A DNA stretch of 64,000 nt, taken from positions 6,125 to 70,124 of the forward strand of contig JAIPGM010000007.1 of NCBI GenBank assembly GCA_021735655.1, read 5' to 3'. The notes beneath the pieces are model-generated. The model did not search any database. It had not been told where the DNA came from and saw only the letters and a program-made list of their open reading frames with translations. Shown in pieces: positions 1,649-62,710 of this stretch. Both the position numbers and the translations under genes were made by a program. Each line of letters starts with the position of its first letter. The stretch's first letter is position 1. The DNA comes from Candidatus Omnitrophota bacterium (lineage in GTDB: Bacteria > Omnitrophota > Gorgyraeia > Duberdicusellales > 4484-171).

Positions 1649-2260
1649 TTAGATATAACCTTTTTGAGATAAATAATTTAAAATGCTCTTTGCTGCTTCT
1701 TCCTTGGTTAGCTTACCAGTATCAATAACTATTTCAGCCTGCTCTGGTTCTTCATAGGGAGCAGAAACCCCGGTAAACTGCTTAATTTCACCACTGCGAG
1801 CCTTTTTATAAAGCCCCTTAGGGTCTCTTTGTTCGCAAATTGCAAGATCAGCCTTAACAAAAACTTCAATAAAATCACCTTGCTTCATAAGGCTCCGGGC
1901 CTTATCTCTGTCTTTTCTGTAAGGAGAAATAAAAGCAGTTATAGCTAAAGTTCCGGCTTCAGAAAATAATTTTGCCACCTCACTAATTCTTCGAATATTT
2001 TCTTGGCGATCTTCCGGAGAAAAACCCAAGTTACTATTTAAGCCGTGGCGAACATTGTCACCATCTAGAAGATAAACCTGGTGTTCCTTCTCAAAAAGCA
2101 TTGCCTGAAGCTCAACAGCAACTGTAGATTTACCGCTTGAAGGTAAACCCGTAAACCAAATAACTGCCCCCTTGTGCTTATTGCGCTTTTCTCTGTCCTG
2201 TTTAGATATCCCTGATTCATGCCATGTAATATTTGTGCTCTTTCTTTGTTCTTGATTCAT
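1649..2260 (-). CDS. cysC: adenylylsulfate (APS) kinase
   Basis: P-loop GLPSSGKST, typical APS-kinase length of 203 aa, adjacent to sat. Confidence 0.9.
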
Positions 2261-60621: not shown

Positions 60622-61332
60622 TTAATAACCGATGAAGCTTTCTGTTTTAACCTTATTTTTATCACAACCGGTTTTAAGGCACAAGTCATGCATCGCCTTA
60701 ACCATCGATGGTGGGCCAAAAACAAAAAAGGTTCTATCTTTCCATCTCTCTATCTTCTCAACTAACAACTCTTGACTAATCACACCGTTAATGCAGCTCT
60801 GATCCTTTGGTTCACAATCAGTCACCAGATAGAATACCTTTATAGTATCATTAGCCGCTTGCCAGTTATCCAGCTCTTCTTTAAAAGCAATATCTTCAGT
60901 CCGGTTAGAATAAAGCAAAATAACATTTGTCTTAAGCCGCTTATTTTCAATGTATTCAATAATTGAAATTACCGGGGTTATGCCAATTCCACCAATTAAA
61001 AATGCTACCTTCTTATTGTCATCACTGAATACACAGCTACCCATCGCCGGCTTTAAATCTACTTTATCACCCGGTTTCAGGTCTCTTAGCTTTTGAGAAA
61101 ATTCACTTTCGCTCAATCTTTTAGTGACCTCCAAATATTGTTTAGTTGGTGAAGAGGAAAAAGAAAGGTACTTATTCAGCTGATGATTCCTAAGATTATC
61201 GCTATCGAAAATAAGTTGTGTAAACTGTCCGGGTAAAAAATCTACCCTTACTTCCGGAAAAAACCGAAAACTCTCTATATCTTTAGTTCTCTTGATGCGT
61301 TCACTTAAACTTGCCTTAATTTTATTTTCCAT
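60622..61332 (-). CDS. FNR-family FAD/NAD(P)-binding oxidoreductase (putative Hcp/rubredoxin reductase partner, no Fe-S domain)
   Basis: KYLSFSS (RxYS-type FAD motif) and GGIGITP NAD motif. Start at the MENKIKA ATG, overlapping the fur-family stop by 11 nt. Confidence 0.7.
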   Translation of the reverse strand: MENKIKASLSERIKRTKDIESFRFFPEVRVDFLPGQFTQLIFDSDNLRNHQLNKYLSFSSSPTKQYLEVTKRLSESEFSQKLRDLKPGDKVDLKPAMGSCVFSDDNKKVAFLIGGIGITPVISIIEYIENKRLKTNVILLYSNRTEDIAFKEELDNWQAANDTIKVFYLVTDCEPKDQSCINGVISQELLVEKIERWKDRTFFVFGPPSMVKAMHDLCLKTGCDKNKVKTESFIGY

Positions 61333-61741
61333 TATTAACCTCCCGGCAGTTTTTACATGTACCATAGAAGTAACCCTGAAGCTCTTCGATGATATTACCG
61401 TCAACTTCTCGTTGTTCAAGAGCCTTGCAAGGCTTCATATTAAGATCCGAAATTTCATCACAGCTCTTACATAAAAAATGATGGTGGGGGTCAATTCTAG
61501 CTTCAAAGCAAGACTTATCAAACTGTATTCTTATCTCATTAATTACGTGCTTCTGCTTAAAAAGATCCAAAACCGTATAAACAGTAGCCAAAGATACTGC
61601 TGGCATTCTAAGCTTAACTCTCTCGTAAATCTGATCAGCAGTTAAATGCTTACCATTATTTAAAAGAACTCCATGGACCTCTAACCTCTGCTGAGTTGGC
61701 CTTATATCATGACCCCTTAATACCTTAAGACTGTTTTCCAT
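61322..61741 (-). CDS. Fur-family metalloregulator (PerR-like by context)
   Basis: N-terminal HTH region, HHHF.C..C metal-site motifs, C-terminal CxxC; heads the oxidative-stress cluster. Confidence 0.85.
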   Translation of the reverse strand: MENSLKVLRGHDIRPTQQRLEVHGVLLNNGKHLTADQIYERVKLRMPAVSLATVYTVLDLFKQKHVINEIRIQFDKSCFEARIDPHHHFLCKSCDEISDLNMKPCKALEQREVDGNIIEELQGYFYGTCKNCREVNNGK

Positions 61742-61750
61742 ATTAATCGA

Positions 61751-61779
61751 CTATACAACTTTTTCTCCTTATTGTCAAG
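61751..61779 (-). promoter_or_regulatory. sigma70-like promoter for the fur-family gene (TTGACA, 17 nt, TATAGT); implies a near-leaderless mRNA
   Basis: Minus-strand TTGACA (plus 61774-61779) and TATAGT (plus 61751-61756); the ATG lies only about 9 nt after the -10 element. Confidence 0.5.
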
Positions 61780-61794
61780 AATTATTTTTGATTA

Positions 61795-61807
61795 ATAATG
61801 ATTATTG
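61795..61807. promoter_or_regulatory. Fur/PerR-box-like perfect palindrome AATAATGATTATT
   Basis: 13-bp 6-1-6 perfect inverted repeat about 55 nt upstream of the fur-family ATG; resembles the PerR box TTATAATnATTATAA and the Fur box core. Confidence 0.5.
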
Positions 61808-61928
61808 TTAAAAGTCATAACCCTCTTTCCTCCATAAGGTTCTAGTCCAACTCATTAATCGGGTTAAAAAATGGGCATGAAAACAAGCTAAAAAATAATA
61901 GCGTTTTCAGATCAAAAGAAAAATACCC

Positions 61929-61958
61929 TTGAAAGGAAAGCTAAAACCATGTTATATT
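61929..61958 (+). promoter_or_regulatory. promoter module A (TTGAAA, 18 nt, extended -10 TGtTATATT), plus strand
   Basis: Part of a roughly 44-nt block repeated in inverted orientation at 62517-62545. Confidence 0.55.
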
Positions 61959-61964
61959 TATATG

Positions 61965-62067
61965 AAATAAGGGTAGCATAACAACTTAAACTAAAAAAGA
62001 GAGGGACTTCCGTTAAGGAAGAGGCTTCAAGAATAATCTTGTAAGCAGAAACCCCTCTCTTTTTTTA
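61965..62067 (+). ncRNA. candidate ~100-nt small structured RNA (orphan; promoter A to intrinsic terminator)
   Basis: No ORF. Short leader, then a multi-branch structure (outer stem AGAGAGGG/CCCTCTCT enclosing hairpins CTTCC-GTTAA-GGAAG and GCTTCAAGA-ATAAT-CTTGTAAGC) followed by T7. Confidence 0.4.
61993..62067. terminator. bidirectional rho-independent terminator (A6-stem...stem-T7)
   Basis: AAAAAAGAGAGGG...CCCTCTCTTTTTTT works on both strands, ending the plus-strand sRNA and the minus-strand pilZ transcript. Confidence 0.6.
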
Positions 62068-62123
62068 TAGAATTTTTAAACTATCTTTAAGCTGAAACGA
62101 TTGAAAAGGTTGGGTTTTTAAGG

Positions 62124-62453
62124 CTAAGTTGCAAAAACTTTCCCTAAAAAATGGGAAAGCGACTTCTTGCCTTTCTCATTTAACTCAATGAATTGAAGAC
62201 CAGCTGAATAACGATCAGCCATCCTATCTTTATTGCACCAAACAAGTTTGGCCTTTAAGTCGACCACTGCATCAACAAGGTTAACATGTAATTTTAAAAG
62301 ACTATCTCTAGGAATAAAGGTATTGCTTACTATCTTTACTCCAACCATACTTAGATCCTTGCAAACGGTATAAAAATACTTCTGAGAAGGAAGAGTTTTG
62401 CACTCAACCGGGAAAGATATTCCTACTCTGGGGTTATTTCTTCTTTCTTGCAT
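62124..62453 (-). CDS. single-domain PilZ protein (c-di-GMP receptor-like)
   Basis: RRNNPR (RxxxR) and DLSMVG (DxSxxG) motifs, 109 aa. Confidence 0.7.
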   Translation of the reverse strand: MQERRNNPRVGISFPVECKTLPSQKYFYTVCKDLSMVGVKIVSNTFIPRDSLLKLHVNLVDAVVDLKAKLVWCNKDRMADRYSAGLQFIELNEKGKKSLSHFLGKVFAT

Positions 62454-62464
62454 AATTGTCGGTT

Positions 62465-62510
62465 AAAAAAGAGTCCGAACCCGTGGCTTTAGAGACACAA
62501 GTTCGGATTT
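62465..62510 (-). promoter_or_regulatory. promoter-proximal hairpin plus U6 tract in the pilZ 5' leader (attenuator/terminator-like)
   Basis: Minus-strand RNA forms UCCGAAC-(20-nt loop)-GUUCGGA then CUC-UUUUUU, ending 11 nt before the pilZ ATG; no SD in between. Confidence 0.45.
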
Positions 62511-62516
62511 CATATA

Positions 62517-62545
62517 AATATAACATAATTTTTCTTACTTTTCAA
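62517..62545 (-). promoter_or_regulatory. promoter module B (TTGAAA, 17 nt, extended -10 TGtTATATT), minus strand
   Basis: Inverted copy of module A, including an identical 20-nt core ATGTTATATTTATATGAAAT. Confidence 0.55.
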
Positions 62546-62635: not shown

Positions 62636-62710
62636 TGGCTGCCCGGCTAGGACTCGAACCTAGGAAACAAGAACCAGAATCTTGCGTGTTGCCAATTACA
62701 CTACCGGGCA
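62636..62710 (-). tRNA. tRNA-Gln (anticodon CUG)
   Basis: Hand-folded: acceptor TGCCCGG/CCGGGCA (U1-A72, G73 as in bacterial tRNA-Gln), anticodon stem CAAGA/TCTTG with loop TTCTGGT, T-arm CTAGG-TTCGAGT-CCTAG, encoded CCA. G37 is atypical. Confidence 0.75.

Follow-up and report, generated by a model that had tools for sequence, protein, structure and literature searches.

Genes and features at the locus

The analyzed stretch of DNA, hereafter called the window, comprises 64,000 nucleotides from a member of the Omnitrophota. Nearly all of its open reading frames (ORFs) of at least 100 aa lie on the minus strand. A candidate small RNA (sRNA) element is located in a 382-bp gap between two minus-strand genes, pilZ and a PerR-like gene of the Fur family, and its strand, the plus strand of the window, is antisense to all neighboring genes. 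The region had previously been described as devoid of ORFs, and no plus-strand ORF of at least 30 aa was detected in 61742-62123. Relatives of the locus were found using the Fur and PilZ proteins as anchors. They provided five lineages (the window itself, L002-L007, L008-L011, L020/L024 and L021/L022) and six distinct sequences in alignment A5. The locus contains the following features, with coordinates referring to the window.

61322-61741, minus strand: PerR-like Fur-family gene (perR), followed by genes for an NAD-binding oxidoreductase and hcp
61929..61934, plus strand: -35 hexamer of the predicted sRNA promoter, TTGAAA, from a promoter scan; CTTGAAA block conserved
61950..61958, plus strand: extended -10 of the predicted sRNA promoter, TG-T-TATATT (TG-T-TACATT in relatives)
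61965..61992, plus strand: predicted 5' end of the sRNA (putative start at ~61964-61966, ~7 nt after the -10) and variable 5' segment
61993..62005, plus strand: 5' strand of the predicted stem P1, A6 and GAGAGGG, the latter invariant in all lineages
62007..62021, plus strand: hairpin P2, CTTCC-loop-GGAAG, with an invariant base CUUCC/GGAAG and two covarying upper pairs
62022..62023, plus strand: junction J2/3, AG (GG in L020/L021), from alignment A5
62024..62046, plus strand: hairpin P3, with a single bulged base (T) on the 3' side, three compensatory pairs and a variable loop sequence
62047..62051, plus strand: junction J3/1, AGAAA, invariant and unpaired
62052..62066, plus strand: 3' strand of P1, CCCCTCTC, and T7, the predicted intrinsic terminator of the sRNA; CCCCTCTC(T/C)TTTTTT invariant in five lineages
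62067..62123, minus strand: spacer separating the element from the pilZ stop codon and forming the proximal part of the pilZ 3' untranslated region (UTR)
62124..62453, minus strand: pilZ, encoding a single-domain PilZ protein of 109 aa (Pfam PF07238, E 6.7e-13; RxxxR and DxSxxG motifs)
62507..62465, minus strand: pilZ leader hairpin (UCCGAACUUGUG...CACGGGUUCGGA) and U6, upstream of the pilZ ATG at 62453
62545..62517, minus strand: pilZ promoter, TTGAAA-17-TATATT with TG

Several further features were noted. A 122-aa plus-strand ORF without a Pfam match occupies 426-794, in a gap between minus-strand genes; it could be a second plus-strand unit, contrary to the remark in the earlier note that the sRNA was the sole one. 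Upstream of pilZ, a tRNA-Gln(CTG) gene is present in three lineages (window 62636-62710, minus strand; L002 1750-1824; L008 1601-1675), with an interval to pilZ that is ~350 nt longer in L002 and L008 than in the window and holds a called ORF of 50-53 aa. On the perR side, the promoter of this Fur/PerR-family gene (TTGACA-17-TATAGT) adjoins a palindrome, AATAAT-G-ATTATT (6-1-6; 61794-61806, plus strand), which is located upstream of the perR -35 (61778..61773, minus strand), does not vary among the window, the L002 group and the L008 group in alignment A1 and is probably a PerR/Fur box for perR autoregulation. The perR mRNA may be leaderless, since its -10 lies only ~8 nt before the ATG.

Predicted fold and promoters

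On the plus strand, 61965-62067 folded with a minimum free energy of -32.9 kcal/mol, compared to -17.8 ± 3.1 kcal/mol for 200 dinucleotide shuffles (z -4.9), none of which (0/200) was as stable as the native sequence. The same fold agrees with the long outer stem, two hairpins and T7 that had been proposed for this segment. The outer stem, P1, comprises 13 bp between 61993-62005 and 62053-62065 (AAAAAAGAGAGGG / CCCTCTCTTTTTT) and encloses the P2 hairpin CTTCC-GTTAA-GGAAG (62007-62021) and the P3 hairpin GCTTCAAGA-ATAA-TCTTG(T)AAGC (62024-62046), with AGAAA(C) unpaired at 62047-62052 between P3 and the 3' strand of P1 (all plus strand). While the T7 was thus found as described, the previously given end at 62067 needs correction, since T7 spans 62060-62066 and 62067 is an A. 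P1 offers a GC-rich core of 7-8 bp followed by an invariant T6-7, the arrangement that an sRNA gene with an intrinsic terminator should have.

The opposite strand folded as well as the plus strand (-31.7 kcal/mol, z -5.3). A T6 comes after this fold, so that it can terminate pilZ in this window. Equally good folding of both strands, each with a subsequent T-run, and an A-run/T-run symmetry that is typical of bidirectional terminators would also suit an element that makes no functional RNA and is instead an elaborate bidirectional terminator insulating pilZ from the downstream operon, the plus-strand promoter match being incidental or an RNA polymerase roadblock. We consider this explanation improbable, on evidence from the promoter, the inner hairpins and the two U-runs given below.

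The predicted sRNA promoter consists of TTGAAA-18-TATATT with an upstream TG (61929-61958, plus strand). Its -35 block, CTTGAAA, is invariant in the window, the L002 group, the L008 group and L020 and reads CTTGCAA in L021/L022; for the hexamer, this corresponds to TTGAAA in three of the four further lineages and TTGCAA in L021/L022. The extended -10, ATGTTAYATTT, was retained in all five lineages with a spacer of 18, and a promoter scan in sRNA orientation returned TTGAAA-18-TACATT with TG in L002, L008 and L020. This conserved promoter lies on one strand, 35-65 nt upstream of the element. Between the -10 and P1, the distance ranges from ~5 nt (L008) to ~35 nt and the sequence is not conserved, and the -35/-10 spacing is fixed; the region thus behaves as a promoter with a free 5' end. 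At the sequence level, the element has a predicted promoter of its own, with fixed -35/-10 spacing in five lineages. That this spacing persists amid diverged flanks argues against an element that serves solely to terminate transcription.

A 26-nt inverted copy of the -10/+1 part of the sRNA promoter, 92% complementary, was identified at 62507-62532, where it forms the pilZ promoter; a 20-mer of this repeat has only two sites in the 64 kb, with 0.03 expected. The earlier note had placed the sRNA under a 'promoter module A'. This plus-strand promoter is present and conserved, but a special regulatory module was not supported, the sequence being near-consensus sigma-70 with an extended -10. A special operator was not supported either: both promoters fit a near-consensus sigma-70 promoter, and it is only in this genome that they resemble each other beyond the -35 and the extended -10.

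A further conserved motif, AACGYTTYCA (window 61900-61911; L020 2502-2530), precedes the sRNA -35 by 17-18 nt. On the gene strand, this motif reads as the -35 (TTGAAAACG) of a divergent promoter in back-to-back arrangement. The divergent promoter is complete in L020 (TTGAAA-17-TACAAT with TG) and belongs there to the nifU operon, while that of the window appears decayed because no -10 follows TTGAAAACG.

Conservation and covariation in relatives

A search of genome contigs with PilZ recovered one relative only, L020. Compared to the window, the PilZ proteins of the four further lineages are 65-81% identical. Intergenic alignments had a mean column identity of 59-74%, with large indels and unalignable stretches, and contained a series of invariant or near-invariant blocks: CTTGAAA, ATGTTAYATTT, GAGAGGG-R-CUUCC, GGAAG-RG-G, CAGAAACCCCUCUC and T6-7. 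The four further lineages keep the -35, the extended -10, the three-way junction and the T-run, in the same orientation and convergent to pilZ, and the junction bases RG and AGAAA are invariant across lineages. Homologous loci without the promoter and the structure had been named beforehand as an observation that would speak against the sRNA; the opposite was found, as both were kept in these four lineages.

The three-way junction was the minimum-energy structure on the plus strand in all five lineages, and the opposite strand takes a different fold in L002 and L021. Across alignment A5, with its six distinct sequences, 97% of cells were paired. We examined the homologous loci for covariation, as suggested in the earlier note, and observed changes on both sides in five base pairs, all of which are located in P2 and P3. 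Three of these compensatory pairs belong to P3, where G.U pairs also occur in L008 and L020/L024. Examples are GCUU/AAGC, which changes to GCUC/GAGC and to GUUC/GAAC, and the upper P2 pairs, with UC/GA in L008 versus AG/CU in L020. The covariation score of 0.152 exceeded those of 500/500 shuffles and all slid controls. Since only five lineages (six distinct sequences) contribute, these statistics are weak, and the P1 core, which never varies, is silent on pairing, for or against. We therefore regard the covariation evidence for the fold as supportive rather than conclusive. Over the six sequences, the region combines a lack of ORFs with a covarying structure, as an sRNA gene should, and its 5' segment is variable or absent. 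Two compensating inner hairpins and invariant junction bases are not needed by a terminator, which further argues against a purely terminating role.

Strand preference

Six G.U cells are readable only on the plus strand, being C.A mismatches on the gene strand, and one A.C cell favors the gene strand. Canonical cells numbered 161 on the plus strand versus 156 on the gene strand, of 166 in total, which makes this a modest strand test. The T6-7 after P1 is invariant on the plus strand, and the gene-strand U-run is degenerate, with GTGGTTTG in L002 and ACTTTCAT in L008. The promoter is conserved in plus orientation. Base pairing (G.U), the U-run that never varies and promoter orientation thus agree in favoring the plus strand of the window. 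Decay of the very U-run that termination of pilZ requires, next to an invariant U-run on the plus strand, is a third argument against a terminator without an RNA product. These data also refine the earlier proposal that the sRNA and pilZ share a terminator, which is clear in three of the five lineages (window, L020 and L021) but compromised by poor gene-strand U-runs in L002 and L008.

On these sequence features, we consider it likely that the element specifies a real, strongly promoted sRNA of 75-105 nt, with P1 and U7 as its own terminator. Its predicted length is best read as ~100 nt in the genome studied here, with a range of 75-105 nt among relatives.

Distribution and possible origin

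The convergent layout with pilZ, described earlier for the window, was borne out in 5/5 lineages. On the other flank, also in 5/5 lineages, the sRNA promoter is positioned back to back with an oxidative-stress operon, perR-oxidoreductase-(hcp)-nifU-rubrerythrin, which is reduced to nifU-rubrerythrin without perR in L020. In L020 and L021, the gene on the non-pilZ side is nifU instead of perR, and the sRNA remains.

The element was not found in L023, with a PilZ that is 67% identical, or in the loci of more distant PilZ orthologues (L025-L035). For this purpose, 12 more distant PilZ loci were scanned with covariance model R1, filters off; the best match, at 15 bits, was a plain terminator in L031. 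No element was present at perR loci without a pilZ neighbor (L012-L019). It is missing where pilZ and the oxidative-stress operon are not adjacent (L012/L029, L015, L019 and L023). The 64-kb window contains no second copy. A pattern scan of viral contigs yielded 0 matches and, thus, no sign of a phage or mobile origin. An exact-pattern scan of metagenome contigs likewise gave 0 matches, that collection evidently being without element-bearing contigs.

At the equivalent position, L031 carries a plain bidirectional terminator (AAAAUAGGGGC...GCCCCUAUUUU), which suggests that elaboration of a terminator of this type gave rise to the element in one subclade. A plain bidirectional terminator would apparently have become an RNA gene through the addition of inner hairpins and a promoter, a useful case of sRNA birth. 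As a plausible ancestor in the same position, the L031 terminator also fits the view that the element is still no more than a terminator, which we judged improbable above.

Among the distant orthologues, the context of PilZ is different and possibly operonic. In L025, L027, L033 and L035, the PilZ gene is followed downstream by a small lysine-rich ORF with CxxC...C (..KRKKNC..C.K.LKR..WYYR....FC.K.CF..). After this ORF, L033 and L035 carry a second PilZ gene and then DUF4416 and a radical-SAM gene.

Search for known RNA families

The Rfam search proposed in the earlier note was performed with Rfam 15 and gave no match to the element; at gathering thresholds, the whole window contained two tRNAs only. 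With E values up to 10, 61742-62130 returned sub-threshold miRNA and snoRNA noise, the best at 31 bits versus a gathering threshold of 77. Searches of the literature for RNA motifs in Omnitrophota or for antisense pairs involving PilZ retrieved nothing relevant.

We also compared the element to individual RNA classes. The hammerhead core consists of CUGANGA in the segment joining stems I and II, with GAAA preceding stem III. In the element, neither strand contains CUGANGA, the junction between the hairpins is only RG, and Rfam gave no match. Other ribozyme readings were rejected since core motifs are missing on both strands. For SRP, 6S and tRNA-like RNAs, there was no model match, and the element is confined to one subclade. 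A riboswitch was dismissed because no aptamer family matched, no plus-strand ORF follows downstream and L008 has no anti-terminator sequence. The OxyS family (RF00035) gave no match at E up to 10, and the neighboring regulator belongs to the Fur/PerR family. A type I toxin-antitoxin system was discarded as well, the partner being a 109-aa PilZ-domain protein and not a small (<~60 aa) hydrophobic toxic peptide.

The pilZ leader and a possible signal-gated terminator

A second structured segment precedes pilZ. The leader hairpin, with a U6 ending 11 nt before the ATG, is kept in eight PilZ lineages including three without the sRNA (L023, L029 and L031). Its two tandem U.G pairs, invariant or nearly so, can be read on the gene strand only; it also shows C-G/U.G swaps consistent with that strand and has no Rfam match. 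We propose this hairpin as a separate candidate attenuator or cis-regulatory RNA.

Twin near-identical promoters thus bracket pilZ, each followed by a conserved hairpin and a U-run. Such symmetry raises the prospect of a signal-gated terminator, in which the junction of the element would bind a small molecule or protein and the stability of P1 would set T7 read-through antisense to pilZ, with the conserved terminator hairpin in the pilZ leader as a second gate. The combination of invariant unpaired junction bases and variable loops resembles a binding pocket, and, read by eye, GGGGCUUC could pair alternatively with GAAACCCC, with one mismatch, to give a second conformer. However, no known aptamer matched at E up to 10, neither pseudoknot nor loop-loop conservation was seen, and P1 with U7 looks like a strong constitutive terminator. 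Furthermore, L008 has no room for an anti-terminator, as only ~5 nt lie upstream of P1. Gating of this kind is, in our view, very unlikely. We give equally little credence to its specific form, a sensor composed of the junction (RG and AGAAA) and P1 that responds to a metabolite or protein, possibly c-di-GMP or PilZ itself, and tunes termination at T7. If such a sensor were real, two small structured RNAs with twin promoters would gate pilZ, one at each end, and control of a c-di-GMP receptor by this design, here in an uncultured phylum, would not have been described before.

Possible functions of the sRNA

The reading we put first, tentatively and at slightly under an even chance, is that the sRNA is real and serves as an antisense partner of pilZ in cis. 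Transcription would begin near 61965, driven by a strong promoter of the sigma-70 type whose -10 is extended, and the RNA would fold into a three-way junction in which P1, GAGAGGG(G)/(C)CCCUCUC, encloses P2 and P3 and leaves RG and AGAAA unpaired. The GC-rich P1 and U7 would then act as the sRNA's intrinsic terminator. From the opposite direction, the pilZ mRNA would enter the mirror image of this fold at its 3' end, and it should end there because pilZ is convergent and no other terminator-like site precedes the element; in the window, none was detected from the pilZ stop codon up to the element. With a shared terminator, the sRNA core and the pilZ 3' UTR would be perfectly complementary over ~70 nt, and each would show two hairpin loops matching those of the other. 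Loop-loop contacts could start an sRNA/pilZ duplex and thereby alter the fate of the pilZ mRNA 3' end, through either double-strand RNase cleavage or protection from exonucleases. The outcome would be a tuned level of the c-di-GMP receptor. We infer transcription of the sRNA, its 3' overlap and its pairing with pilZ mRNA from the sequence features, and the antisense regulatory effect on pilZ from the layout only.

The antisense model explains that the loops drift and the stems covary. The invariance of P1, the P2 base and AGAAA is unexplained by it and suggests a protein, ligand or trans-RNA partner. Part of this invariance may reflect the folding of both strands, because G.U intermediates on one strand are mismatches on the other. 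As both RNAs are very stable (~-33 kcal/mol), duplex formation would be slowed. In L021, a small hairpin, CCCGAT-AGTA-ATCGGG, is located between pilZ and the element and might end pilZ transcripts earlier.

A real sRNA could also function independently of the pilZ overlap, acting in trans on mRNAs or binding or sequestering a protein, and it may then belong to the PerR oxidative-stress regulon in an OxyS-like arrangement. We rate this alternative as possible, if rather unlikely. P1 (GAGAGGG/CCCCUCUC), CUUCC/GGAAG and the unpaired AGAAA are invariant while P3 has changed at many positions, and such sequence-level constraint is typical of a conserved partner. The constant back-to-back position of the sRNA promoter and the oxidative-stress operon (5/5 lineages), together with absence of the element from L012/L029, L015, L019 and L023, where pilZ and this operon are not neighbors, would also fit. 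Conversely, no conserved single-stranded seed exceeds 5-7 nt, the loops and 5' segment being variable, and no conserved complementarity was found to the pilZ leader or the start regions of the operon. Membership in the PerR regulon is further opposed by the sRNA promoter, which has no PerR-box-like palindrome and a nonconserved spacer, and an OxyS-like role by the lack of Rfam similarity to OxyS or any other sRNA.

Target searches gave little additional guidance. RNAduplex, run on all start regions, allowed long loops and was uninformative. Contiguous complementarity between the sRNA and the pilZ leader was limited to a low-complexity purine/U-run that is not conserved in L020/L021, and complements of the invariant blocks did not recur at any site close to the start codons of operons. 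For the invariant GCAGAAACCCC of the sRNA, a perfect complement of 11 nt, GGGGTTTCTGC, was noted at window 1761-1771 (minus strand), deep in ORF 1649..2260; this match is probably due to chance.

To our knowledge, the Omnitrophota have no cultured representatives, and we found no described regulatory RNA for this phylum in Rfam 15 or the literature. The locus provides a well-delimited RNA family, with promoter, fold, terminator and comparative support, that is tied to a c-di-GMP receptor gene and located beside a PerR oxidative-stress operon. If the cis-antisense model is correct, the output of c-di-GMP signaling would be set post-transcriptionally via the 3' end of the PilZ mRNA. With covariance model R1, built in this study, further assemblies can be annotated for this family.

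Comparison with known systems

OxyS is a ~100-nt sRNA with three stems that is encoded back to back with the peroxide-stress regulator gene oxyR. The sRNA promoter studied here is similarly divergent from the perR operon. However, a regulator of the PerR/Fur family takes the place of OxyR, the sRNA promoter has no operator in common with it, and the L020/L021 locus lacks perR, yet the sRNA is present. Like bidirectional intrinsic terminators, the element has a GC-rich stem, usable from both strands, with an A-run on one side and a T-run on the other; in contrast to them, it adds two conserved inner hairpins, invariant junction bases and its own conserved promoter.

The proposed layout resembles that of the type I toxin-antitoxin pairs SR4/bsrG, RatA/txpA and SR6/yonT of Bacillus subtilis, in which convergent RNAs share 3' sequence that includes the terminator stem-loops. 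Pairing of SR4 with bsrG involves the 3' ends of both, makes first contact via the SR4 terminator loop and results in mRNA decay (PMC3834814). Unlike in these pairs, the partner here is a 109-aa PilZ protein with canonical motifs and not a small hydrophobic toxin, and nothing points to toxicity or to a prophage or mobile context. In Escherichia coli, GadY of the GadY/gadX pair is likewise an sRNA of ~100 nt; it has a promoter of its own, is encoded on the strand opposite the 3' end of a neighboring gene, pairs with the 3' UTR of the mRNA and alters mRNA stability. GadY stabilizes the overlapping gadX mRNA (PMC7373196, citing Opdyke et al. 2004). For the sRNA described here, pairing of this kind is a proposal. 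The two systems differ in that Rfam indicated no similarity in sequence or structure, the organism is another one, the proposed target is a PilZ receptor and the overlap would be the shared terminator itself. Judged by its sequence, the RNA family is therefore new and its kind is familiar: a predicted promoter-to-terminator sRNA gene that overlaps the 3' end of a convergent neighbor.
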